A stretch of DNA of 64,000 bases, taken from the IMG/VR virus record IMGVR_UViG_3300028832_002797; one strand, given 5' to 3'. The notes under the pieces were generated by a model that was not told where the DNA came from, searched no databases, and was given only the letters and a program-made list of their open reading frames with translations. Below, piece after piece: positions 1,799 through 50,061 of the stretch (position 1 is the first letter of the stretch; each line of letters starts with the position of its first letter). This stretch comes from a virus. Its lineage: Duplodnaviria; Heunggongvirae; Uroviricota; Caudoviricetes. The translations under genes and the position numbers were made by a program.

Positions 1799-1993
1799 TT
1801 ACGGGTTATCTATCGGAACGAGCTTCCAGCCGTATTTTCCACATTTTTCTCTTGCGAATGTTGCGGCTTTTTCGTCATCGGTCCAGGTTTTCACGTTTTT
1901 ATCCATCATATACTGATATGTATCGGAATTCGTAGGAAATACCGGGCCATTAGGAAAATCAAACTGTACTGTCCAAATATTATTACATGTCAT
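1799..1993 (-). CDS. hypothetical small protein (64 aa)
   Basis: ORF track. Compact spacing in the operon. Confidence 0.4.
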   Translation of the reverse strand: MTCNNIWTVQFDFPNGPVFPTNSDTYQYMMDKNVKTWTDDEKAATFAREKCGKYGWKLVPIDNP

Positions 1994-2171
1994 CTTGAAT
2001 TACCTTTTCTGAAAATTCTTCGAGCTTATCTAGGCTCTTTTCTGCTGCGACGCGTTCTTCTGTAACGACGTCGGTATCAAATCTATCGAGATGAAGCATG
2101 GCCCTAGCCAATTCTGCGGCCGGGAACATTTCCATCATTGTTTTCGGTCTTTCTTTATTTTCTTCGTCCAT
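1983..2171 (-). CDS. hypothetical small acidic protein (62 aa, MDEENKERPK...)
   Basis: Internal ATG at 2169-2171 lies immediately downstream (6 nt) of a promoter box. The upstream part of the track ORF overlaps the uvsX 3' end and is probably not coding. Confidence 0.35.
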   Translation of the reverse strand: MDEENKERPKTMMEMFPAAELARAMLHLDRFDTDVVTEERVAAEKSLDKLEEFSEKVIQDDM

Positions 2172-2177
2172 AATAAT

Positions 2178-2191
2178 AAAATATAGTAAAA
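2178..2191 (-). promoter_or_regulatory. Promoter-like box (minus-strand TTTTACTATATTTT) directly upstream of the 1983..2171 start
   Basis: Plus strand reads aaaatatagtaaaa. The start codon follows 6 nt later, a leaderless-type arrangement. Confidence 0.4.
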
Positions 2192-2192
2192 T

Positions 2193-2222
2193 AAAAGGGC
2201 CCATTTGGACCCTTTTATTTAT
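2193..2222 (-). terminator. Rho-independent terminator hairpin (aagggcccatttggaccctt) with flanking A/T runs, downstream of uvsX
   Basis: GC-rich inverted repeat followed by T-runs on both strands, so potentially bidirectional. Confidence 0.55.
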
Positions 2223-2238
2223 TTGTTCTGGAAAACAA

Positions 2239-3432
2239 CTACATATCGTCGTCGTCTTCAGCGAGAATATCACCGTCGAGTTCGTCGAGGTTAGCACCAG
2301 TACGGTTAACCATAGCGATACCTGTATTTTCACTGAGGTCTTCGTAACCCGCATTCATAAGAGCGAGAACGTCTTCGTTTGCGTTGATAAGTACCTGTTC
2401 TTCGAATGCGAACTTGGATTCTACATAATGCCTGAACGTTTCATCCTTATAGAGAGGAATCCAGAATTTAGCACAGTAGAGTTCTTCTTCCTTCCACATT
2501 CTTTCCGGCTTGCCAAGTTCACCAGTTTCAGGATCAACCTTGGTATCGTAACCGATACGTGCATAATAACCCGGCTTCGGCTTGTAAACTACGCCACATT
2601 CCATGGCTTCATCCAAAAGTCCGTAGTACGGAGATACACCACCTGCATGAAGGATAAGATACTTGGTCTTGACGAATTCCTTAGCGGAACGACCCTTAGC
2701 AACAGCACAGGTAACGACCTTACCAAGAACATTCTTGCCCTTGTCACGTTCCTTTTTAGAGGAGTAACCGAGAACAATACCGTCAGCGTTAAAGATAATA
2801 CGCATACCGCCAGGAATCTTATACGGGTCGCCGAACATTTCGAGAGAAGCATAAACGTGGTTCATGACGAGAGTCGTGAAACCGCCACTCAAAATAATGT
2901 TTGCGAGTTCGTTTTTGAATTTTGCGGAAGACATGTTAACAGCGGAACTTCCCTGTTGTGCCTTTTCAAGAACCTGGTCTTCGATAATCGGACCCCAGGA
3001 GTCAAACAATACGAAAGTATTGCGACGTTGCTGAAGCGAGCCACACTGAGCCGAGAGCTTAGCGATGAACTGCTTAATTTTCGGAATGCTGTTCGTAGGA
3101 CCGTGAACACCGACTTCATCCATGTTAATTCCGAGCTTCGTAAGAAGGTCATAGTTAACGGAGTTTTCAGTATCGACAATGAAACAGTCCATACCAGAAT
3201 CCTGTGCAGCCTTAAGAACTGAATAACCAATCATGGACTTACCCCAGCCGGAACCGGCAGCAATCATGCTGATTGAACCCTTCTTAATACCACCCTTAAT
3301 TTTACCAGAAAGAACGAGGTTAACCGAAATACAGTTCGTACTAAGCCATTCCACAGGAATACGCTCAGTATGAAGAAGATCGGCCAAATCCTTATCTTTC
3401 TTCATTTTCGCCAAAAGCGTGTTTTTTGCCAT
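2239..3432 (-). CDS. uvsX: UvsX/RecA-family recombinase
   Basis: Walker A motif GSGWGKS. RecA-fold core with an acidic C-terminal tail (EDDDDM). Size (397 aa) is like T4 UvsX (391 aa). Confidence 0.85.
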   Translation of the reverse strand: MAKNTLLAKMKKDKDLADLLHTERIPVEWLSTNCISVNLVLSGKIKGGIKKGSISMIAAGSGWGKSMIGYSVLKAAQDSGMDCFIVDTENSVNYDLLTKLGINMDEVGVHGPTNSIPKIKQFIAKLSAQCGSLQQRRNTFVLFDSWGPIIEDQVLEKAQQGSSAVNMSSAKFKNELANIILSGGFTTLVMNHVYASLEMFGDPYKIPGGMRIIFNADGIVLGYSSKKERDKGKNVLGKVVTCAVAKGRSAKEFVKTKYLILHAGGVSPYYGLLDEAMECGVVYKPKPGYYARIGYDTKVDPETGELGKPERMWKEEELYCAKFWIPLYKDETFRHYVESKFAFEEQVLINANEDVLALMNAGYEDLSENTGIAMVNRTGANLDELDGDILAEDDDDM

Positions 3433-3542
3433 TTTTTACCTATTATTTTATTTTGTCATCGAATTTGTCATCATGAGCTTTAATCGGCTAACGTACTTTG
3501 AATCGCCCTTTTCATTGCACTTTTACTGTTAGCCAGAATATT

Positions 3543-3552
3543 TATAATATAG
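3543..3552 (-). promoter_or_regulatory. Promoter-like box (minus-strand CTATATTATA) following a terminator hairpin
   Basis: Plus strand reads tataatatag, adjacent to hairpin 3560-3577. Confidence 0.4.
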
Positions 3553-3559
3553 AAAAAAT

Positions 3560-3577
3560 GGTAAACTTTCGTTTACC
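3560..3577 (-). terminator. Terminator hairpin ggtaaac-ttt-cgtttacc downstream of the 3599..3961 gene, followed by a T-run on the minus strand
   Basis: Perfect 7-bp stem plus T6 on the coding strand. Confidence 0.5.
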
Positions 3578-3598
3578 ATTCTTAAATTTGTTCCGATT

Positions 3599-3961
3599 TT
3601 ATCGGCCGAGGAACTCGTTGAGAACTTCACCTTCCGACGGATATAAATCACGGTACGGATTATGATATTCTGCCTTCTGTTTTACGAATTCACTCTTTTC
3701 CGTCTTTTCGACAACGAAATCCTTATCAATCTTTGCAGCGGGTGCTTCGAGAATTTCCTTAGATTCCGTAATCTGTTGCGGCTTAATCAAACCTTCAGCA
3801 GCCTTAGGCTTTGATGATTCGTTAATCTGCGGAGCCGGAGTTTCTTGGTGAGCGGCTTCATATTCCTTGAGCTTAGTCTTATGCTTTGTCCACATGTGAG
3901 AGCCAAGCTTCATACGGTTTTCAAAAGTTTCACCACAAATAGGGCAAGTTACTTGATCCAT
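3599..3961 (-). CDS. C2H2-type zinc-finger protein (CPICGETF...HMWTKH)
   Basis: N-terminal CxxC...HxxxxH pattern. Verified ATG at 3959-3961. Confidence 0.5.
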   Translation of the reverse strand: MDQVTCPICGETFENRMKLGSHMWTKHKTKLKEYEAAHQETPAPQINESSKPKAAEGLIKPQQITESKEILEAPAAKIDKDFVVEKTEKSEFVKQKAEYHNPYRDLYPSEGEVLNEFLGR

Positions 3962-3973
3962 AGTCTACTCCAA

Positions 3974-4594
3974 TTATTTCTTTTTAGTATTCTTCTTTGC
4001 AGGCTTCTTCTTGTTCTTCTTTCCGTTAACAGCCTCATTTTGGCGGGGCTTAGTTTTCTTCGGAGTGCTTTTGCCTGGCTTGACAGTTTTCTCAGTCTTC
4101 TTCTTGGTTTCATTTGTTGTTTCCTTACGTGAACGCTTCTTTTCAGTCGGCTTCTTGACCGGCTTAAGAGCCTTTGCAATCTTCTTCAGATCTTCATCGG
4201 AAATCTTGTCGGTTTCCTTTTCAACGACCTTCGGAGTAGCAGGAACTTCAGCCTTAGCCACTTCCAATGTTTCTGGAGTTTCAGCGAGAACCTTGCCAGC
4301 GAGCTCTTCTGTTACGGTATATGTCGGTTCCAATTCAACCATCGGTTCCGGCTTATTTGCTTCTTCGCAAATAATGTTTCCGGCTTCCATGATGTCGCAT
4401 GCTGTCTGCTGACATTCTGCTTCATGCTGAGCTGGATCTTCTTCATATCCTTCAATCATAGAGTCAAGCGGATTTTCGTCAAGCTTAACGATTTCCGGCT
4501 TCTGTTCACGCAATGCCTTGCGGAGCAAGAAATATCCGATTACAACCAAGATTACGGCGAGCGCAATCAAACCAATTACTAATGTAGTATTCAT
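3974..4594 (-). CDS. membrane-anchored protein with acidic middle and lysine-rich (histone-H1-like) C-terminal tail
   Basis: N-terminal hydrophobic helix (LVIGLIALAVILVVIGYFLL). The C-terminus reads KKKTEKTVKPGKSTPKKTKP...KKNTKKK. Confidence 0.5.
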   Translation of the reverse strand: MNTTLVIGLIALAVILVVIGYFLLRKALREQKPEIVKLDENPLDSMIEGYEEDPAQHEAECQQTACDIMEAGNIICEEANKPEPMVELEPTYTVTEELAGKVLAETPETLEVAKAEVPATPKVVEKETDKISDEDLKKIAKALKPVKKPTEKKRSRKETTNETKKKTEKTVKPGKSTPKKTKPRQNEAVNGKKNKKKPAKKNTKKK

Positions 4595-4642: not shown

Positions 4643-5719
4643 CTAACTGAAAAACTCGAACATTGTCGGTCGTTCCAAATTAATTTCTTCCTTCGGACCT
4701 AACCAACCAGCGATTCTGAACATCGTATCGAAAAGCTGACAGAAAGATTTTCTGAATGCGGTTTCATAGTCAATCTCAAAGTATTTATTAAATTCTTGCG
4801 GCCAAGATTCGAGATATGCGACTGCTTCAATCGGCGAAGTTTTTCCGTCCATATCCTTGGCTACAATCTTCTGAGATGGCTTTACATATACATATCGTAA
4901 TTTGGAATTATTACGAATCGGGTTATATTTCAACCTGTCCTTAGTAACGATATAGTTGTAGATAATCGAAATCTTTGCACCGAAAATGAGACCAGTCGGA
5001 AGAATCAAACCGTGGTCCATGTAATAGTCCATGAGAGTCTCGTATTTCATATCGAACGGCGTCGTATTCATCGCACTTTCAGAATACAGCTCTCTGAATT
5101 TGTCCATGGCGATTGTCGTATATTTCGTATAGTTCTTGATACCGATAACCGACGAAATAACGTTCAAATCCGAGCTCTTAAACTGGTCATAAACCTTGTA
5201 GATATATTCCTGTGCTTCGTCCTTACCGATACCGTCGCAGATTTTGAATGCGAGTTCTTCAGCAGCCGTTTTACAGAAGTCTGGCATAGTCGATTTCTTA
5301 ATAGGAACGCCCATAATTTTATGCTTCATGTGGTCAAGCGGATATAACGAACCTTCACTATCGATAATATTACCGATATACAACTTCTTTGCAAAACAGA
5401 ACATGTTTTTGAAGATGTTTTCACGGTTGAAATTAATCTTATTGACCGTATGGAACTGCTTGGCTCGAATGTCGAGAATCTTATCGAAGAAACGCTGGAA
5501 CACGTCCTCGCATTTCTGGAAATAGCTTCGATATTCCTCTTCGTTCGTAATCTGCAAACCAGATTCCATCAAACGCTTCTTTAGCTCAATAATCGAAAAA
5601 TAAACTGAGTCCGTATCATTATGGACCGCACAGACATCGCGACCTTTCACGACAAGAGGACTCATGTCGTTCATTTGAAATTTATCAATCTTTACATCTA
5701 ATGCTTTCTTAAATTCCAT
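4643..5719 (-). CDS. Family B DNA polymerase, C-terminal subunit (motif C region, HNDTDSVYF)
   Basis: YGDTDS-like motif C (VHNDTDSVY). ATG at 5717-5719 lies 1 nt after the TAA (5721-5723) of the upstream pol fragment. The track ORF extends upstream in a non-coding overlap. Confidence 0.75.
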   Translation of the reverse strand: MEFKKALDVKIDKFQMNDMSPLVVKGRDVCAVHNDTDSVYFSIIELKKRLMESGLQITNEEEYRSYFQKCEDVFQRFFDKILDIRAKQFHTVNKINFNRENIFKNMFCFAKKLYIGNIIDSEGSLYPLDHMKHKIMGVPIKKSTMPDFCKTAAEELAFKICDGIGKDEAQEYIYKVYDQFKSSDLNVISSVIGIKNYTKYTTIAMDKFRELYSESAMNTTPFDMKYETLMDYYMDHGLILPTGLIFGAKISIIYNYIVTKDRLKYNPIRNNSKLRYVYVKPSQKIVAKDMDGKTSPIEAVAYLESWPQEFNKYFEIDYETAFRKSFCQLFDTMFRIAGWLGPKEEINLERPTMFEFFS

Positions 5720-5720
5720 C

Positions 5721-7928
5721 TTAATCCTCAATACCGAGAAGGTCAGTGTCCTTGTTGAATTCGTAAGCGTAGATTTCCATTTCGTCATTACCGCGAAGAA
5801 CAGTAATCTTTTCATAGAAATCGTACTTATATGTCTTTTCTTCCGTAATGATGGAAACTGTCGAGAATTCCTTGACAACATCCTTGAGCAAGAACGGAGA
5901 AACATAGTATTCATTGAGATTCTTGGTCAACCAGTCTCTCAAAGTGACACGAGCGCAACGGCAAATAGCACGAGCAACGTCAGGGTCATACAAAGCGAAA
6001 CTGTTAGCAAGAGAAACACCGTAAACCGAGTTAATGATGAGCTTCTTGGTCATCTGTCGGTTATGATACAAATGTTCACCAGCTTTATCGCCTTTCTTGT
6101 GACATTCCTTTTCCTTATTCTTATATACCTTACGTTCTGCAAACACCTGCTTGACAACGTTCGGAAGAATACCGTCATCACGGTTATAGAAACCAAGTTC
6201 TGCAACGTCTGTCGGAATAACCTCACCGGATTCAATCTGTTCCTTAGTCGGATGAACAACCTTCAATTCCGGAGAGATATGGAATTCCATAATGTGGTGC
6301 GGATATGACGAGGTAATATCGAAAGACATACAATCGTCATGTCGACCAGGGAAGTCATAACAATAACCTGCCTTTACCTGGAATTCTGGGAACGGATGAG
6401 GATCCTTCTTATACGCTTCCCATGCGGCAAGGAAATCCTTTTCAGTTTTCCAATGCTCGAATCTTCTCTGTCCGACAAGTCGCTTGATTGTATCGTAATC
6501 ATACTTTCCTTCAGACTGAGCTTCCTTATAAGCATCATAGAAAACACGGAACTTACAATAGTCCTTATAACGCTTTGCACCCGGTTCCCATTCAGTGTTC
6601 TGGAAATAATCGTTTCCGTCCTTATCTTTTACGATATAGCAACGTTCATTTCTCCACCAGTCAACATGATGGTCTTCACGGTCATTCAAAACACGGTTGG
6701 TCTTATGTAAGAATTTTAAGATATAACCAGTAGTCGTCGGAACCTTCTGTTCAACCTTATCGAGAGTAACAAGGCAATCGAATGCATATTCAATAATAAG
6801 GTCGAAGAGCTTGTTTTTCTTTTCAAGGTCGACCATAATCATAACGTCCTTTCTGTTATACTTCAGGAAGTTATTACCGTCAATCTTGTAGGTTTCAGAA
6901 ATTGCACCGCTATATTCCAACTTTTGGTCATTTAATTCGAGGTTGGCAACATAGTTAAGGGAATACGAAGAAAGAGGCGGATGAGATCCGAAGACTTCGT
7001 ACAGTTTCATGTAGTCAAGAGAATACAAACCAGGAATCGTGTACTTCGTTCCAAGTTCAACGTTTTCCATCTTGCGGTCAGTAATCTTTTCAGCCACAGG
7101 CATCATGCCGAGAGGAGACAGATTCTTTTCCCATTCAACCTTGATGTCGTATTTCTCTCTGAGAACTTCACAACGACGCATGATATAGGGAATATCGTAT
7201 GCGAGCGAGTTCCAACCTGTAATGATGTCAAAATGATTATTGGCGAACCACTTAATCCATTCACGGATAAGTACCATTTCTGACTTACAGTACGTATAAT
7301 TCGGTAAATCCTTCGGGTCATCTGTATATCTGATTGTGCTCCAGGTATAAGATTGACCAGTCTTTGTAGAATAACAAGTAATGGCGTTAATTGGCCACTG
7401 AGCTATTTCAGGAGACGGGAAGTCATATGAAACAAAACAGCTATCATCGTAGGGAAGCCATTTCTGAACTTCAATGTCATAAACAAAATACTTGTCATGG
7501 TCAAACTTCATATCGAAATCAATAAGACTGATGTCGAGAGTTTTCTTGGTTTTCTTTTCGCAGACCTTAATCAATGTTTCGTCATAATACTTACTTCCTG
7601 ACGCAACTTCAATATCGAAGAAACAGATATTCCATTTGCTCATATCAACTTGGAGTTCTTCGTTATCGTATAGTTGGTGCATGTATTTGACTTCTGGACG
7701 CAAATTACCTTCACATACGCCTCTAAGACCCATAAGGGAATTACGGTCACTATAATCGAACCGTATCATCGGTGTCTTGTGAATGTCAGTAATATTGCTC
7801 TTCTTTGAAGGATCCGGCCTGTAGCACCAGTTATGAAATTCAACTTCTTTAAAATCAATATCATCTTGGGCTTTAAAATAGAGCTTTTGTTTTTTAAAGT
7901 CCCAGTAACAATTCTTAAATCCACTCAT
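5721..7928 (-). CDS. Family B DNA polymerase, N-terminal subunit (3'-5' exonuclease + palm motifs A and B)
   Basis: Exo I (FFDIEV) and Exo II (WNSLAYDIPYI) motifs. Motif A DITSSYPHHI and motif B KLIINSVYGV. Ends before motif C. Confidence 0.85.
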   Translation of the reverse strand: MSGFKNCYWDFKKQKLYFKAQDDIDFKEVEFHNWCYRPDPSKKSNITDIHKTPMIRFDYSDRNSLMGLRGVCEGNLRPEVKYMHQLYDNEELQVDMSKWNICFFDIEVASGSKYYDETLIKVCEKKTKKTLDISLIDFDMKFDHDKYFVYDIEVQKWLPYDDSCFVSYDFPSPEIAQWPINAITCYSTKTGQSYTWSTIRYTDDPKDLPNYTYCKSEMVLIREWIKWFANNHFDIITGWNSLAYDIPYIMRRCEVLREKYDIKVEWEKNLSPLGMMPVAEKITDRKMENVELGTKYTIPGLYSLDYMKLYEVFGSHPPLSSYSLNYVANLELNDQKLEYSGAISETYKIDGNNFLKYNRKDVMIMVDLEKKNKLFDLIIEYAFDCLVTLDKVEQKVPTTTGYILKFLHKTNRVLNDREDHHVDWWRNERCYIVKDKDGNDYFQNTEWEPGAKRYKDYCKFRVFYDAYKEAQSEGKYDYDTIKRLVGQRRFEHWKTEKDFLAAWEAYKKDPHPFPEFQVKAGYCYDFPGRHDDCMSFDITSSYPHHIMEFHISPELKVVHPTKEQIESGEVIPTDVAELGFYNRDDGILPNVVKQVFAERKVYKNKEKECHKKGDKAGEHLYHNRQMTKKLIINSVYGVSLANSFALYDPDVARAICRCARVTLRDWLTKNLNEYYVSPFLLKDVVKEFSTVSIITEEKTYKYDFYEKITVLRGNDEMEIYAYEFNKDTDLLGIED

Positions 7929-8447: not shown

Positions 8448-8697
8448 ATCTAAATTTTATCCTTCCTTTACTCATATCATAGATGTTAACACCGATGAGG
8501 CATTTATCACCTGGAGTGATATGAATATGCTTAACACGAATTTTACCAGATATTGTGCAGAGCACTCTCTGGCCGTTTTCGAGTTCTACGTCAAACATCG
8601 CATTAGGGCGGGCTTCTAAAACCGTGCCGATAACATCGACTTCTGACAAGTTTTGTTTTTCTGCTTTATCTTTTTTATTAGTTTTAATTTTTTTCAT
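8407..8697 (-). CDS. infA: Translation initiation factor IF-1 homolog (S1-like OB fold) with lysine-rich N-terminal extension
   Basis: VIGTVLEARPNAMFDVELENGQRVLCTISGKIRVKHIHITPGDKCLIGVNIYDMSKGRIKFRY aligns closely with bacterial IF-1 (GTV.E.LPN.MF.VELENGH...ISGKMR...I..GD.V....PYDL.KGRI..R). ATG at 8695-8697 lies 1 nt after the upstream TAA. Confidence 0.8.
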   Translation of the reverse strand: MKKIKTNKKDKAEKQNLSEVDVIGTVLEARPNAMFDVELENGQRVLCTISGKIRVKHIHITPGDKCLIGVNIYDMSKGRIKFRYDTRVQQKEKTSA

Positions 8698-8698
8698 G

Positions 8699-9718
8699 TT
8701 AATTCGCAGCTGTTTCAAGCTCAGCATTAGTGGTCGGGTTTTCTTCAGCAGATGGCATTTCAAAAGTTGATTCTCCGTCAGCAACGACTTCGAATTCTTC
8801 TACAGGTTCATTAGATTCTTCAATTTTTTGCTGTGCTTCTTTCTTTTCTTCAGATAGCTTTTTAATTCTTTCACTATTGGCCTGCACCAAAGCAAGGCGT
8901 TTAGCACCTTCGTCAACCTGGACGGAGGATTGCTTTGTAAGCGTGCTTCCCAATTCACTCAGATCTGCGGTTTCGAGCATTGCATCGAGGTTAGCTTTCT
9001 TTTGTTTCAAGATTTCTTCTTCAGATTTCGCAGGTTCTGCTTTTTTAACAACTCTGGGCTTCGTTACTTGTGGTGCTGCAGCAGCTTCAGCAACTTTTTC
9101 AGTTTTTGCTACTACGGGCTTTTTCTTAACAACAGTCTTCTTTACAGGAGCCGGAGGAGCTACAACTACTTCCGGTTCTTTTTCTTTGTAAATAATCTTC
9201 GGAGCTGGCGGAGGGGGATTCATGATTTCATCACACATGTCCAACATACATTCATTGAGTTTCTCAAGGCCAGTCATTCCATATTTAAAAAACATTGCAG
9301 TCATTTTCTCTTTCATTTCGTCAATAAGAGAAAAAGCTTCAGAAAAAGCGGGGTTATTAATATAACCCGCACTTTCTACAATACTTTGTGGCTTTTTAGT
9401 GCGTCTGCGAACAGGCGCAGGTTCTACATAATTATCATCGTCAAAATCGGGTTCAGCAGGCATAGGAGCAGGACGCGGCGCCGGAGTAGGAGCCGGAGCT
9501 GGTGCCGGACGTGGAGCTGGCCTCGGTGAAGGACGCTGCGTACGGTGAGCTTCGTTAATCTCCGGAACTTCGTCATTATAAAAATCATCATCCTCTAGCT
9601 CATCGACAGAAACTGTCTGAGCTGTAGACTTGTAATTCTTATATGCCTCGAGTTGCTGTTCTTCGGTATAAGACGGGTCGTTTTTATGTAGAAAGCTTAA
9701 AAAATCACCTTTACTCAT
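8699..9718 (-). CDS. proline/alanine-rich protein (RPSPRPAPRPAPAPAPTPAPRPAP; PPPPAPK...) with coiled-coil C-terminus
   Basis: ORF track with verified ATG. Low-complexity Pro-rich segments. Function unknown; scaffold or linker protein is possible. Confidence 0.5.
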   Translation of the reverse strand: MSKGDFLSFLHKNDPSYTEEQQLEAYKNYKSTAQTVSVDELEDDDFYNDEVPEINEAHRTQRPSPRPAPRPAPAPAPTPAPRPAPMPAEPDFDDDNYVEPAPVRRRTKKPQSIVESAGYINNPAFSEAFSLIDEMKEKMTAMFFKYGMTGLEKLNECMLDMCDEIMNPPPPAPKIIYKEKEPEVVVAPPAPVKKTVVKKKPVVAKTEKVAEAAAAPQVTKPRVVKKAEPAKSEEEILKQKKANLDAMLETADLSELGSTLTKQSSVQVDEGAKRLALVQANSERIKKLSEEKKEAQQKIEESNEPVEEFEVVADGESTFEMPSAEENPTTNAELETAAN

Positions 9719-17830: not shown

Positions 17831-19063
17831 TCATTCTTCAATAGTCCTTTGCACGTTAGAAGGTTCCAATTTTTTGTGTACAGCACGCTTTACAGAAACA
17901 AAGCTCTTGTCATTGCGAGAAATACACTTGATAGCCTGCATGATAGCCCCTACATCGCTTTTATAGTGTGCTGTGGCATATTCATAGCGAGAACGCTGGT
18001 CTTCAACAGCCTTCATGGTTTCACGAGCTTCAGAGACGACTACTTCAGTTAATTCTGCTACCCTTTTACGTACGCTTTCGGCGTATTCACGTAATTCCGG
18101 GAATTCTTCAGGAATATACAGAACTTCGTCGTCAATCGGCTTGTAACCCTTTGTCTTGTCGACATTGGCATGGAAGAAATCCTTTTCACAGTCGTAAGCT
18201 ACCCAGATATTCCATTCACTAAGGCATTCGAGCATTTTCGCAAGCTGGCACCATTCATCAGACTTTACCTTAATCTTGAAACCGTGTTCCGGGAAAGTGA
18301 TAACGTAACCTTCCTGGTTTGACGGAAGCTTGGTTGCGATATTTCGAGCTTCATTGAAAGTATCGAATTCGTAAATCTCCGCCATCTTGATTCCCCAAGC
18401 ATTAGCATAGACACGAAGTCCGGTAATGTGTTCTTCTTCGCCAGTTTCATTATCGATAACGGCGAGCAGCACAAGGCCTTCGAAGTCATAACGGATCGGA
18501 TGGAAATCCTCGTTATAAACGATTTCGAACAGGTAGGTCTTCTTCGGGTTCAAGAGTTCCTTTTTGATATGCTGGTCAAACCAACGCTGTCCCCAGATTG
18601 CCTGGTCAGAATCGAAAGAACCGCCGGTTTTCAACTGCCAATGTTTCAGATACGGATTCCAGAATACGATACCCAAAGACCCGTCAACCTTTTCCATAGT
18701 ATGGAAACGAATAGACTTCAGAATCTTTCGGATGTCAATCTTCTTCTGGTACTTCATGACCTTCTTTGCGAGTTCCGTCAGTTCGCCAGTCTCGCTGTCA
18801 ATCAGTTCACCGTAGTTGAAGAACTTATCGAACGGACGAGCTACGATTTCGCCGGTTTCAGAATCGAAAACGATACCACGGGAGGTGAGAGTAATCTCAT
18901 CCCAATCCGAAGTATATACTGTTTCTCGAGTATACTTGAAACCAACGAGCTTACCGTACCAGTGAGCTGTGATTCGTCCTTTTTCTGCCGCCTTCAAATA
19001 CTTACGAAGCTTGTACTTCTTCTGTATTTTCCTTAGCAGGTTCTTCAACTTTTCCGTTATCAT
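17831..19063 (-). CDS. rnlA: ATP-dependent RNA ligase, T4 Rnl1 (RnlA) family
   Basis: Nucleotidyltransferase motif I TMEKVDGSLG. Segments RGIVFDSETGEIVARPFDKFFN, FEIVYNE...LLAVIDNETGEE and EGYVITFPEHGFKIKVKSDEW are collinear with T4 Rnl1. Confidence 0.85.
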   Translation of the reverse strand: MITEKLKNLLRKIQKKYKLRKYLKAAEKGRITAHWYGKLVGFKYTRETVYTSDWDEITLTSRGIVFDSETGEIVARPFDKFFNYGELIDSETGELTELAKKVMKYQKKIDIRKILKSIRFHTMEKVDGSLGIVFWNPYLKHWQLKTGGSFDSDQAIWGQRWFDQHIKKELLNPKKTYLFEIVYNEDFHPIRYDFEGLVLLAVIDNETGEEEHITGLRVYANAWGIKMAEIYEFDTFNEARNIATKLPSNQEGYVITFPEHGFKIKVKSDEWCQLAKMLECLSEWNIWVAYDCEKDFFHANVDKTKGYKPIDDEVLYIPEEFPELREYAESVRKRVAELTEVVVSEARETMKAVEDQRSRYEYATAHYKSDVGAIMQAIKCISRNDKSFVSVKRAVHKKLEPSNVQRTIEE

Positions 19064-25308: not shown

Positions 25309-25612
25309 AGTATTTCCTCATTAAAAGTGTTAAAGCGAGAAGTAGTATTTATTTGCCTAAATTATTATAGGAACATCTTTTGCTTTAACGGGTTAAAATA
25401 TAGTAATTATTGTGGGTTTTGTAAACCCCTATTTTTTATTTTTTTTTTCCTTGGATGCTTTCTTCTTCAAGGAGTTTTCTGTTTCCAACGTACTTCCCAT
25501 AAAAACTTACCGCTCGGATCGTGTTAGAATAGTTTAGGGATTGAGTTCTGTTTGACGATAAACAACCCGAACGGTCTGTATAATATAGCAAGTGCTTTGT
25601 CTGTTGTAAACC

Positions 25613-42222: not shown

Positions 42223-42639
42223 TTAACCTGTTGTATAGAGCATTTTCTTGTAATCCAAATAATTCTTAATAGTAAATCCGAGATTCTTAATGTTCGTCAG
42301 CGTTTCTTCGATAAAGTCATAGTAATACTTCTGAGTATCGTATTCCTTTATTGCCATAAGGTATTTCGAATCCTTGTAAATCTGAGATTCTATTTCCTTG
42401 GTCGTTCCCCAGCTTACGTTATCATTGAACTTGTAATAGTAATAGAGTTCTCCATAAATCTTGTTGAGACTGACCTTTAGCTGCGATACCAGATATTTCT
42501 GGGTAGTATACAACTTCGTCCATTTCTGAATAGTAGAAGGCAATAGGTTATTTACACGCATCACCTCTTCGATATTATCAGGCAATGTCGTATCTTCTTC
42601 TGCATATTTCTTTAAAATTTCAAAATCTTCTACTTTCAT
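42223..42639 (-). CDS. hypothetical protein (138 aa)
   Basis: ORF track. Confidence 0.4.
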   Translation of the reverse strand: MKVEDFEILKKYAEEDTTLPDNIEEVMRVNNLLPSTIQKWTKLYTTQKYLVSQLKVSLNKIYGELYYYYKFNDNVSWGTTKEIESQIYKDSKYLMAIKEYDTQKYYYDFIEETLTNIKNLGFTIKNYLDYKKMLYTTG

Positions 42640-42779
42640 AATTTATCCTTAATGTTTAAATATAGCAAATCCATTACGATTCAATTACAACATATATATA
42701 AAATTTCCATGATTTTTAAAACGACAGAATATTTTGTTTTTAGTTAAAAAATTTTTTACAAAAACTTTCTATACTTGGG

Positions 42780-43140
42780 TTTACATATTCAAGTCTGATT
42801 CCTCGGAACGAAGACCAATCCAATGGAATTATCGGTAGAGGGTCAGCCATTGAAAACTTCAGATACGGGTTTTCCAGAAATGAGCTGGAATATCGTTTTG
42901 AAACATACTCGGTAACAGCTAGTGGAAGTATCAGCGAAGTGCAGATTAGCAATCTGCACGTTTAGCCGCCATGGTTTTAACGGATGTAGCCGAAGTACAG
43001 GATGACCGCCTCGTAAGCCGTTATGTAAATCCCGAAAGATTGACGATGAAGCTTTATACCAAAAGTGGAATAGTCATAGTCTGGAAGTTCCTTCTAGGCT
43101 TATGATCTCTGAATCGCATTACCCAAAAGATAGAACAAAT
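42780..43140. ncRNA. Candidate structured non-coding RNA (about 360 nt, ORF-free, hairpin-rich; strand undetermined)
   Basis: No ORF of 60 aa or more on the plus strand, and only an unconvincing alternative-start ORF on the minus strand. Perfect 9-bp hairpin gtgcagatt-agc-aatctgcac at 42939-42959, with further stems nearby. By eye the GC content is higher than the flanks. Bounded by a promoter-like box and a terminator. Confidence 0.25.
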
Positions 43141-43148
43141 AAAAATAA

Positions 43149-43170
43149 AACCTAGTTTAACAACTAGGTT
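43149..43170 (-). terminator. Hairpin aacctag-tttaacaa-ctaggtt with a long T-run on the minus strand
   Basis: Downstream of the small acidic ORF 43196..43345. Confidence 0.45.
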
Positions 43171-43195
43171 TTAAAATTAAAGATTTTTAAATTAT

Positions 43196-43345
43196 TCTAC
43201 TGATAAATCGATTTCATCAGAAAGTTCTTGCAATTCATCAAGCTCTTCTTCAGAATATTTCTTTTTCTTCTTATTCAATACTGTTTCATCAATCTGAATC
43301 GAATCCAACTCGACGAAATTTTCTTCTGTATTATACATCATAAAT
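43196..43345 (-). CDS. small acidic protein (about 49 aa, MMYNTEENFVELDSIQIDE...)
   Basis: Manual translation. Below the ORF-track cut-off. Confidence 0.25.
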
Positions 43346-43351
43346 TTCTCC

Positions 43352-44212
43352 TTATTTTAACTCACCGATAGGTTCTTCTTTTCTAATCATGCCCTTAGGG
43401 AATCTTGAATCTCTCCAATATTTTGTCATATCCCTGCTTGCACGAATATTAGTAAATTCTTCTGGTTTCAATGTTGGCCATTCTCTGGACCATTTTCCTC
43501 TATAACAGCCAGGTATACCAGCTTCGCTTGCAGATTTTCCATCCTTTATAGCATTTAGGATTTTATTAAGCGTTACGTTATTTTTAGAAACACAGAAATA
43601 TGCAGTTCCAAAATAACTATCTTCAACTTTTACAATAACATTTTTAAGACAGAAATCAACAACGTACTTTTTATCCATCATTGCAACGCCAGTTTCTGTA
43701 TTTTGAACCGCATATCTTTCAATATTACCAAGTTCTGGATATTTAAGCGACATTTCATCCGCTAATTGTTTCCAAATACCAGTATGAGCAGTTTCGGCAG
43801 TATTATTCAGAATCTGACGATAACGTGTAATAGCACGATAGCTCAAAGCACGTCTAGCAGCATCCCATTCAGCTTCCGTAAAACCAACAACACAGTCGCG
43901 GTAATAGTGAAGCATTTCATGAACAAATGTATTTCTAAAAGCTGCAAAAGTACCACAGGCATTGATATTAAGTTTAATTTCAACACCTTCAACTTTACTT
44001 TCGTAAACATTCGGTCTCGGTCTAAAATAGCCGTGAACCCTTGTACCCTTGAACCAACCTAATTTAATCGGTTGAAGCTTGCCGCCGAAGTAAGTATCGT
44101 TAAATTCATTAAAATACTTCTTTAACGCTTCGTCATTCTTTTCGAATTCTTCACCAGTATCTGGGTCTGTAAGCTTAAAGCTTTCGTCTAATAAAAATTC
44201 GTTATTTTCCAT
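43352..44212 (-). CDS. putative zinc metallopeptidase (HExxH; SprT/WLM-like)
   Basis: FVHEMLHYY HExxH motif in a 286-aa protein. Family assignment is tentative. Confidence 0.35.
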   Translation of the reverse strand: MENNEFLLDESFKLTDPDTGEEFEKNDEALKKYFNEFNDTYFGGKLQPIKLGWFKGTRVHGYFRPRPNVYESKVEGVEIKLNINACGTFAAFRNTFVHEMLHYYRDCVVGFTEAEWDAARRALSYRAITRYRQILNNTAETAHTGIWKQLADEMSLKYPELGNIERYAVQNTETGVAMMDKKYVVDFCLKNVIVKVEDSYFGTAYFCVSKNNVTLNKILNAIKDGKSASEAGIPGCYRGKWSREWPTLKPEEFTNIRASRDMTKYWRDSRFPKGMIRKEEPIGELK

Positions 44213-49784: not shown

Positions 49785-50061
49785 AATTAGAATCTAATTT
49801 AATTGTCCATCCACGACATGAAACGGTATCGCCTTTAAAAAACTCTGCAGCCTTGATATAAAATGGTAGAGTTCCAGCTATGAATTCTTTATATTCATCT
49901 TTATACAATATTACAAACTTGACATAATTACCATTATTGTCATACCAGCTAAGACAGGTATTATCTATCTTCGAATAACAAACATAGAAAGCTTTTGATT
50001 TGTTTTTACGTTTAATCCGAACCTTTATTGCTCCAGGTACATATTTTTTACTGCAATACAC
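49732..50061 (-). CDS. small protein, paralog 2 of 3
   Basis: GDTVSCRGWTIKLDSNYAFQKFIHNLETECVLK. Confidence 0.45.
   Translation of the reverse strand: MYCSKKYVPGAIKVRIKRKNKSKAFYVCYSKIDNTCLSWYDNNGNYVKFVILYKDEYKEFIAGTLPFYIKAAEFFKGDTVSCRGWTIKLDSNYAFQKFIHNLETECVLK

Follow-up and report, generated by a model that had tools for sequence, protein, structure and literature searches.

The RNA motif cow-rumen-2 (RF02947) comes from the set of 224 candidate RNA motifs of Weinberg et al. 2017 (PMC5737381), and Rfam types it as 'Gene; sRNA' (small RNA). The searchable literature mentions it solely in one row of the Rfam 15 paper, among the families improved with R-scape, and does not describe a function. 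ROOL and GOLLD are phage or prophage RNAs from rumen or environmental metagenomes, which have complex folds with pseudoknots and are often found near transfer RNA (tRNA) islands (PMC5737381; PMC12286853). Here we analyze a 64,000-nucleotide (nt) stretch of DNA of a Caudoviricetes virus (IMG/VR record IMGVR_UViG_3300028832_002797; called the window below), in which a conserved RNA of ~350 nt occupies the plus strand at about 42785-43135 and carries a complete copy of cow-rumen-2 in its central part. We hold with moderate confidence that this segment is the gene for a stable structured non-coding RNA, which would act in trans through its fold and its invariant core. Two RNAs of well-studied phages are also relevant for comparison. 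The pRNA of phi29 is a structured phage RNA with its own promoter, which works in trans as part of a machine and needs intermolecular loop-loop pairing. Phage T4 makes stable RNAs known as species 1 and 2 (rnaC and rnaD), which are ~120-140 nt long, have no known function and are encoded in its tRNA cluster.

An earlier note on the window had proposed that its main non-coding gap holds a candidate structured non-coding RNA flanked by a promoter-like box and a terminator, possibly a novel RNA, and had suggested a search with Infernal cmscan against Rfam. This search (Rfam 15) gave one match in the whole window and identified the center of the gap as cow-rumen-2, with a score of 108.2 bits compared to a gathering score of 66 (E = 5e-20, model positions 1-106 of 106). 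Hence, the central 105 nt are a catalogued family and the claim of novelty does not stand for them; the RNA gene itself is upheld by the match and by the covariation described below. All the defining features of the family that could be tested are present, namely the P1 hairpin, the long interrupted P2 arm, the AUGUAGC / GUAAG loops and the ACAGGAUGACC apical segment, and the window RNA is a member of cow-rumen-2. In 14 homologous loci tested with Rfam, all 15 cow-rumen-2 matches score at or above the gathering score (71.6-107.7 bits), the most divergent included, and every one of them is located inside the long RNA. The gut habitat of the carriers fits the name of the family. The Rfam model, however, has 106 positions, and a 3-base-pair (bp) pseudoknot, the phage origin, the promoter and the occurrence in multiple copies are not visible in its structure line.

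Similar to ROOL and GOLLD, the RNA is large, ornate, phage-borne and found in the rumen, and now and then it adjoins a tRNA array. However, the ROOL and GOLLD models gave no match at the gathering score in the window, nor at E up to 10 over 42600-43250, these RNAs are ~580-800 nt long compared to ~350 nt here, and most copies of the present RNA are found away from tRNAs. With phi29 pRNA it would share being a structured phage RNA with its own promoter and, as proposed, its action in trans, whereas the phage lineage and the fold are different and a crude covariation search found no loop-loop pairing. The comparison with species 1 and 2, which is by description only, concerns a stable, tRNA-adjacent RNA of a T4-type phage; these RNAs are much shorter, whereas the present RNA lies mostly outside tRNA clusters and has its own promoter.

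The extent of the RNA was determined from its homologs, all of which are metagenomic. The first exact-pattern scan of IMG/VR with a core pattern yielded 75 loci, of which ~48 are real homologs, and further ones were found in a second viral scan anchored in the 5' part and in a scan of GTDB genomes. A full-region nhmmer profile collects 76 homologs, 55 of them distinct, from viral contigs and metagenome-assembled genomes (MAGs) of ruminant guts, and nearly all of them align across the whole profile of ~327 positions. The window contains exactly one copy (42781-43131, 249 bits). In the alignments, the conservation begins ~10 nt before a conserved AAGUC (~42785) and stops past a 3' hairpin (~43135), and the conserved body is three times as long as the Rfam model, beyond which both conservation and covarying structure reach ~150 nt upstream and ~100 nt downstream. 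In distant phages, the RNA is the sole stretch that can be aligned at the DNA level, which we count as a probable sign of selection. A 'distant' blastn search of GenBank phages with 42640-43200 gave no match, i.e. the RNA is absent from the sequenced isolates covered there.

The gap is the largest one in the window, as had been claimed: the stretch 42640-43191 (552 nt) tops the list, and the runners-up measure 304 and 263 nt when plausible open reading frames (ORFs) are masked. The RNA body has a GC content of 42.5%, which is higher than that of its immediate flanks (20.0% and 16.1%), as the earlier note had judged, and the 64-kb window averages 38.1%. Its statements on ORFs are likewise accurate. 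The longest plus-strand ORFs have 34, 30 and 44 amino acids (aa), all below 60 aa, and the sole minus-strand ORF of the gap is one of 70 aa with a TTG start (42740-42952).

That the region encodes a protein, either by this 70-aa ORF or by the 44-aa ORF of the plus strand (42971-43105), has a practically negligible probability, even though both ORFs are present and the minus-strand translation looks conserved in ORF clustering. The earlier note had suggested looking for a conserved coding frame in homologs. With frames anchored on conserved landmarks, in three sub-regions and on both strands, no single one is free of stops in over 20 of the 43 members, so that there is no family-wide open frame on either strand. 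The member lengths are spread evenly modulo 3, the lengths of insertions and deletions are not divisible by three, many homologs have ATT (GCCGCCATTGG) where the 44-aa ORF has its ATG, and the substitutions in helices are compensatory. As no frame is conserved, the 70-aa ORF is an artefact of the conserved RNA sequence, and its translation seems conserved because the underlying DNA is. It is possible that such spurious ORFs truncated the 'intergenic region' of 2017, which would account for the start of the Rfam model at 42933. For annotation, this means that the opposite-strand 70-aa ORF should not be called a gene and that the Rfam model under-represents the RNA.

The earlier note had also proposed a covariation test on homologous regions. 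An unbiased all-against-all covariation scan of 51 distinct members recovered P1 and P2 of the Rfam model and four new elements: helices H1 (in the register 42795-42801 / 42840-42846), H3 and S, and the pseudoknot. The 5' domain was tested formally because it lies wholly outside the Rfam model. In a plain MAFFT alignment of 21 sequences, which was fitted to no structure, 96.6% of the cells pair, compared to 34-48% when the partners are slid by 1-3 columns, and both partners have changed in 18 of the 33 pairs. The alignment has a covariation score of 0.463 vs 0.157, and 0 of 500 shuffles reach 0.463; the covariation is thus far above both the shuffle and the slide controls. A covariance model made from this alignment finds the 5' domain once in the window (42780-42927, 120.5 bits) and matches every tested non-seed member except one, L018 (L numbers are our labels for homologous loci). 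A broader alignment, which leans towards the structure because it was fitted to the model, shows 27 of the 33 pairs changed on both sides and 95.8% of the cells paired.

The individual helices of the 5' domain differ in how much they vary. In H1, the pairing reaches 99.5%, and both partners have changed in 3 pairs in the MAFFT alignment and in 8 of 9 in the broader one, in which H1b is invariant save for a change of A-U to G-U at one pair. Hx has just 1-2 covarying pairs, and the arm formed by these three helices carries the conserved loop AAUCCAAUG. As the partner of the 3' strand of Hx, a 5' AGU could take the place of the AG of CGAAG, and the sequences discriminate both ways. S closes a three-way junction with H2 and H3. 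The pairs changed on both sides number 3/4 in S, 8/8 in H2 and 3/5 in H3 in the MAFFT alignment, and 4/4, 8/8 and 5/5 in the broader one. H3 also contains a lineage-specific insertion (42888-42915). The domain has conserved U-G wobbles, e.g. UG in 20 of 21 sequences at pair 21/64, which would be A-C on the opposite strand, and hence the plus strand is the functional one.

L018 belongs to a sub-family (L018, L066, L167, L169, L170; e.g. L066 3913-4274) in which the core and the 3' hairpins are kept and the 5' domain is different and longer; L018 is the member of it that was tested with the 5'-domain model. A single 415-kb contig contains four copies, L066 among them, and this suggests a modular exchange of domains.

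In the core, the perfect 9-bp hairpin noted earlier is exact, with the arms GUGCAGAUU and AAUCUGCAC, and corresponds to P1, and so is the second complementary segment, taacgg...ccgtta, which forms a stem of P2. P2 shows the strongest covariation of the family (score 6.14). Its exchange of GGAG..CCC to GGAA..UCC (G-C to A-U) would suit a register with a bulged A better than the a-u pair of the Rfam structure. The three pairs of the pseudoknot show 4, 3 and 2 pair types in the covariation scan, and the homologs contain at least 9 distinct Watson-Crick or wobble combinations: UCG/CGA in 24, GCG/CGC in 9, GUG/CAC in 4, CUG/CAG in 3, AUG/CAU in 2, ACG/CGU in 2, UUG/CAA in 1 and two wobble forms. 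In the 3' domain, almost every member folds a hairpin at the place of H4, and 23 different stem sequences are seen there; RNAalifold recovers its inner hairpin in the subgroup of the window, where it does not vary. H5 is recovered by RNAalifold with 2 pairs changed on both sides, its inner pairs show 3-6 pair types, and its UAGG is paired in the minimum-free-energy fold of 47 members. The tentative H6 is the weakest part of the structural model. The full model of the window RNA has 82 base pairs, all 82 of them canonical, in addition to the pseudoknot (Table 1). A motif (A)CC(C)AAAAG is doubled in the 3' domain, at 43057-43066 (H4) and 43121-43130 (loop of H6), and both instances are conserved in the subgroup of the window. 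It could be a repeated protein-binding site.

Table 1. Coordinates of the RNA, its structural elements and adjacent features in the window
Feature	Position	Strand	Remarks
UvsY-like gene	42223-42639	-	window gene
-35-like box TTTACA	42755-42760	+	aligns with (G)TTTAC(A/G) of homologs; displaced in this lineage
-10-like box TATACTTG	42770-42777	+	aligns with family box TATATTTG/TATAATTG
Conserved RNA body	42785-43135	+	5' end estimated to ~5 nt by means of the promoter; 3' end set where family conservation stops
5' arm	42795-42846	+	H1 42795-42804 / 42838-42846; H1b 42809-42811 / 42832-42834; Hx 42812-42816 / 42825-42830
Three-way junction	42848-42924	+	S 42848-42851 / 42921-42924; H2 42852-42859 / 42867-42874; H3 42883-42887 / 42916-42920
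Core (cow-rumen-2)	42933-43037	+	full-length Rfam match
Pseudoknot 5' strand GCG	42934-42936	+	pairs with 43007-43009
P1 hairpin, 9 bp	42939-42959	+	conserved UAGC(AA) loop; Rfam structure; covaries; 9/9 pairs canonical
Junction GUUUAGCCGCCA	42960-42971	+	GCCGCCA columns invariant in 24-sequence alignment
P2 arm, outer stems	42972-43034	+	42973-42976 / 43028-43032; 42978-42983 / 43018-43023
P2 inner stem	42991-42995 / 43010-43013	+	A42994 bulged; internal loop AUGUAGC / UAAG; apical loop UACAGGAUGAC
Pseudoknot 3' strand CGC	43007-43009	+	covariation scan and count of pairing combinations
H4 hairpin	43041-43076	+	outer 43041-43044 / 43073-43076; inner 43051-43055 / 43062-43066; subgroup-conserved GAAGCUUUAUACCAAAAGUG
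H5 hairpin	43078-43100	+	ends in invariant UAGGCU; covariation; RNAalifold
H6, tentative hairpin	43105-43131	+	AUCU / AGAU around AAUCGCAUUACCCAAAAG; per-sequence folds and inspection; two family flavours
Intrinsic-terminator-like hairpin, bidirectional	43146-43173	both	common to the RNA and the convergent 49-aa ORF

The RNA does not belong to the better known classes of structured RNA. The earlier note had seen no signature of tRNA, transfer-messenger RNA (tmRNA), RNase P or 6S RNA by eye. Rfam has no such matches, ARAGORN reports no tRNA or tmRNA in the window, and a permissive cmscan of the gap (42600-43250, E up to 10) gave only noise, with no RNase P, tmRNA, 6S, intron or ribozyme model. 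The same tools detect tRNAs and a tmRNA in other loci. A tRNA-like domain or a cloverleaf was not found by ARAGORN or Rfam. The suggestion of a degenerate group I intron or ribozyme found no support: at E up to 10, no match to an intron model, with its P3-P9 catalytic core, was obtained, an exon context is missing, as the flanking genes are on the opposite strand, and a family promoter lies directly upstream. RNase P RNA was judged by P4 with CR-I/CR-V and by long-range P1/P2 and likewise has no match at E up to 10. A pairing of the 5' AAGUC with a 3' GGCUU, as in RNase P, conflicts with the covarying H1 and H5: the adjacent triplet covaries with H1 and not with the 3' end, UAGG is taken by H5, and the middle base of AAGNC varies between U, C and A without compensation. 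We also rejected a mimic of the sarcin-ricin loop, suggested by the resemblance of AGUACAGGAUGACC to AGUACGAGAGGACC, as the AG belongs to a stem that covaries and has a bulged A, and some members have an A in place of the G, and a mimic of the L11-binding region of 23S ribosomal RNA (rRNA), with which the shared short words occur in another order and for which cmscan gave no rRNA match.

The RNA appears to have its own transcription signals. Most homologs have (G)TTTAC(A/G), a spacer of 16-17 nt and then TATATT or TATAAT followed by TG. The distance between the -10 box of the family and a fixed anchor within the RNA is 25-31 nt, and the TAnnTTTG form of the box is exact in 37 of 52 distinct members. 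A promoter scanner calls TTTACA-17-TATAAT (11/12) in L001 and TTTACA-17-TATATT (10/12) in L027, and the two copies that follow tRNA arrays retain their own two-box promoter. In the window, the promoter-like CTATACT of the earlier note is located at 42769-42775 and aligns with the conserved -10 box of this family promoter. Because the boxes suit the sigma-70/T4-early geometry and the Bacteroidota TAnnTTTG consensus alike, the phylum of the host is not readable from them; a Bacteroidota host, which we had considered for the TAnnTTTG box, was withdrawn, as TTTACA-N17-TATAAT fits the sigma-70/T4-early geometry.

The terminator hairpin of the earlier note was located as well and has 12 bp. On the plus strand, it folds with -12.9 kcal/mol (z = -4.2, 0 of 200 shuffles fold as well) and is followed by UUUU; on the minus strand, its 12 pairs and T-run are also flagged as terminator-like. 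The transcription unit in the window would therefore extend from about 42770 to 43177. Many homologous copies have no obvious terminator and are followed by a TATAAATA box and a late-type gene. This box, the T4 late-promoter consensus, is found 30-60 nt downstream of the RNA (e.g. L027 ~8650-8700), before baseplate-hub-like and 162-aa genes, and supports a T4-type transcription program in these phages. In several homologs, a terminator stem-loop is fused to a promoter; in T4-type phages, promoter/stem-loop cassettes are thought to mediate module shuffling.

The carriers are, judged from their genes and contigs, uncultured T4-like phages that live in ruminant guts and are often very large. The earlier note's idea of a phage regulatory RNA holds for the phage origin, and a regulatory role is conjectural. 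Homologs are found in viral contigs of 210-424 kb, with up to four divergent copies in one 415-kb contig. The window is ~85% identical over ~10 kb to L029, L038, L069 and L075, one of which is from a 411-kb contig. The habitat is based on the genome-collection (GTDB) matches, six of nine of which are goat gastrointestinal MAGs. All of these matches are MAG contigs from ruminant or other guts, and their taxonomy is inconsistent, which suggests that they are probably mis-binned phage DNA; L162-L170 include contigs of 173-191 kb that had been assigned to Methanobrevibacter and others from bins of Succinivibrionaceae, Bacilli and Coprovivens, sometimes with the RNA present twice.

The RNA is found in at least three genomic contexts. 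In the window, where all the genes neighboring it are on the minus strand, and in 12 further loci, it is divergent from uvsY. In 25 loci, it is located between the gene for a 688-aa protein and a same-strand baseplate-hub-like gene, ~60 nt upstream of the latter, and in 15 it is ~30 nt upstream of a same-strand gene for a 162-aa protein. L096 and L127, from phage contigs of 104-109 kb, have arrays of 17 and 18 tRNA genes (414-1933 and 1820-4041 (minus), respectively), after which the RNA follows directly, ~67 nt on and on the same strand. Since there are at least three contexts, no same-strand gene downstream in the window and several copies per genome, we favor action in trans and not in cis.

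Together with the RNA's own promoter, the lack of a constant neighbor, the paralogs within single genomes, the variable helices and the invariant core nucleotides point to a trans-acting RNA that works through its fold. The RNA would be transcribed on its own, from a promoter of the sigma-70/T4-early type, and would act in trans as a folded molecule. The 15 helical segments vary freely in sequence; the invariant unpaired segments are GCCGCCA, AUGUAGC/UAAG, UACAGGAUGAC, CGGARCGAAG and UCGGUAGAGGG. They surround the pseudoknot or lie within the 5' internal loop and would serve as the functional surface, which might bind a conserved protein, an RNA or a small ligand, with the peripheral helices being free to vary.

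A bolder proposal, which we put forward only tentatively and do not expect to hold in all its parts, is that the cow-rumen-2 motif is a mere core of an undescribed class of ornate ~350-nt RNAs of large T4-like gut phages, in which paralogs of one genome have the pseudoknotted core in common but exchangeable peripheral or 5' domains, as in the L018/L066 type, and which have a sophisticated function in infection, such as catalysis, an RNA-protein machine or a decoy for a host factor. The three-domain architecture, the pseudoknot, the promoter, the multiple copies and the T4-like carrier appear to be undescribed, but the supplement of the 2017 work may note some of these.

Of the more specific alternatives to a trans-acting, partner-binding RNA, a ribozyme is unlikely but deserves to be considered. 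The invariant nucleotides around the pseudoknot would then be an active site, for self-processing or for substrates such as phage tRNA precursors. In its favor, the RNA is large and multi-domain, with a pseudoknot ringed by invariant unpaired nucleotides, two members end arrays of 17-18 tRNAs, and the phage encodes an RNA ligase and an RNase H-type exonuclease. However, none of the models tried at E up to 10, RNase P, group I/II introns and small self-cleavers included, matches the RNA, which is without long-range helices of the P1/P2/P4 type; a conserved cleavage-site context was not found, and just 2 of the 55 distinct members adjoin tRNAs, both with their own promoter. A self-assembling RNA-only particle similar to ROOL or GOLLD is distinctly unlikely. 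The setting is the same, i.e. phages, the rumen and an occasional adjacency to tRNA arrays (PMC5737381; PMC12286853), and the ornate multi-helix fold has the conserved apical loops UAGC(AA), AAYYCAAUG, GUAUUAA and UUCCU. On the other hand, the crude search for covarying loop-loop complementarity was negative, the RNA is about half the size of ROOL and matches neither Rfam model, and divergent paralogs within one genome suit a homo-oligomer poorly.

The independent transcription unit with a terminator and the Rfam type would agree with a base-pairing small RNA that regulates phage or host messenger RNAs (mRNAs) through its conserved single-stranded segments. We find this improbable, as sites complementary to seven such segments are not enriched within the 64-kb window, and ~350 nt with 15 helical segments are far beyond the needs of seed pairing. 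A cis-acting leader (a riboswitch, attenuator or mRNA stabilizer) for the downstream gene is very improbable. It would be consistent with the same-strand gene that follows at ~60 nt in 25 loci or ~30 nt in 15, many of these copies being without an obvious terminator. However, the window and 12 loci have no same-strand gene following, the window copy ends at a terminator, and the downstream genes differ by context. In addition, the TATAAATA box lies between the RNA and the downstream gene, which would thus have its own promoter, of the T4 late type. Lastly, T4 has one replication origin at the uvsY promoter, and RNA II of ColE1 is a structured pre-primer RNA. An origin-associated primer or R-loop RNA could be envisaged by analogy, given that the RNA and a UvsY-like gene are divergently oriented in the window and 12 other loci, that an RNase H-type exonuclease gene is nearby and that the several copies per large genome would suit multiple origins. 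Such a role is hardly probable at all, because other copies are in unrelated contexts, the site shows no strand switch or skew inflection, and what is conserved is a folded RNA with invariant loops and not an AT-rich unwinding element.

Several observations weigh against the trans-acting structured RNA that we favor. We infer its transcription from sequence features, and its action in trans and the partner-binding mechanism are proposed, with moderate strength, from its anatomy and by analogy. The promoter scanner called no promoter at the window copy, in which, as in the closest relatives with sequence at this place, L029 and L038, the -35-like box is 9 nt from TATACT and not 16-17. This displacement is apparently due to a deletion of ~8 nt, and the promoter of the window copy is uncertain for this reason. 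Some of the apparent constancy of the core stems from our search patterns. GCCGCCA was demanded by the pattern of the GTDB scan but not by those of the two viral scans. The fold of the single sequence is not significant (z = -1.9), and the comparative model, with -52.7 kcal/mol, falls well short of the minimum free energy of -92.1 kcal/mol. The 3' helices H4 and H6 are weakly suggested by per-sequence folds, and RNAalifold on MAFFT alignments of the 3' domain did not recover H6 or the outer stem of H4; it yields only H5 and the invariant inner H4. Hairpins of variable length misalign. Finally, the RNA is 98.6-98.9% identical to those of L029 and L038, compared to 76-84% in the genes to its left and 76-86% for the left side as a whole, in which uvsY has 83-84%, but the block to its right is also 94-99% identical to close relatives (42785-44212). 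The jump in identity at the RNA promoter (42640-42784 vs 42785-44212) looks like a recombination boundary, and the high identity of the RNA to close relatives may in part reflect this boundary and not selection.

These results give cow-rumen-2, an orphan 106-nt Rfam motif from anonymous rumen contigs, a carrier, a gene structure and a larger architecture. ROOL and GOLLD form unexpected RNA-only assemblies, and the present RNA is another candidate for this general type, with a size that suits structure probing and cryo-electron microscopy.

Some other features of the window and its relatives are of note. The two other non-coding gaps (25309-25612, 304 nt, and 49785-50047, 263 nt) have a GC content of 30-33% and match no Rfam family at the gathering score. 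The ORF convergent with the RNA (43192-43341, minus strand) encodes a very acidic protein of 49 aa, which has no PHROG match and is 98-99% identical in close relatives. A 137-kb viral contig encodes a phage tmRNA (L039 4366-4722, minus strand, 133.5 bits, tag ANTYAMAA) at a distance of ~3 kb from the RNA. In addition to the RNase H-type exonuclease, the window encodes a helicase, a DNA polymerase in two ORFs and an RNA ligase of the RnlA type (17831-19063, minus strand; phrog_562, E = 1e-46). In T4, RnlA repairs tRNA cut by host anticodon nucleases, and the ligase may be relevant to an RNA-centered conflict between host and phage here. The polymerase ORFs overlap (4643-5914 and 5721-7928, both minus strand). 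Compared to phrog_262, the 735-aa ORF covers profile positions 110-376 and the 423-aa ORF positions 573-742, which could reflect a frameshift, an intervening element or a gp43 that is truly split, as it is in some T4-like phages. The best matches of the polymerase are gp43 proteins of T4-like cyanophages, with ~30% identity.

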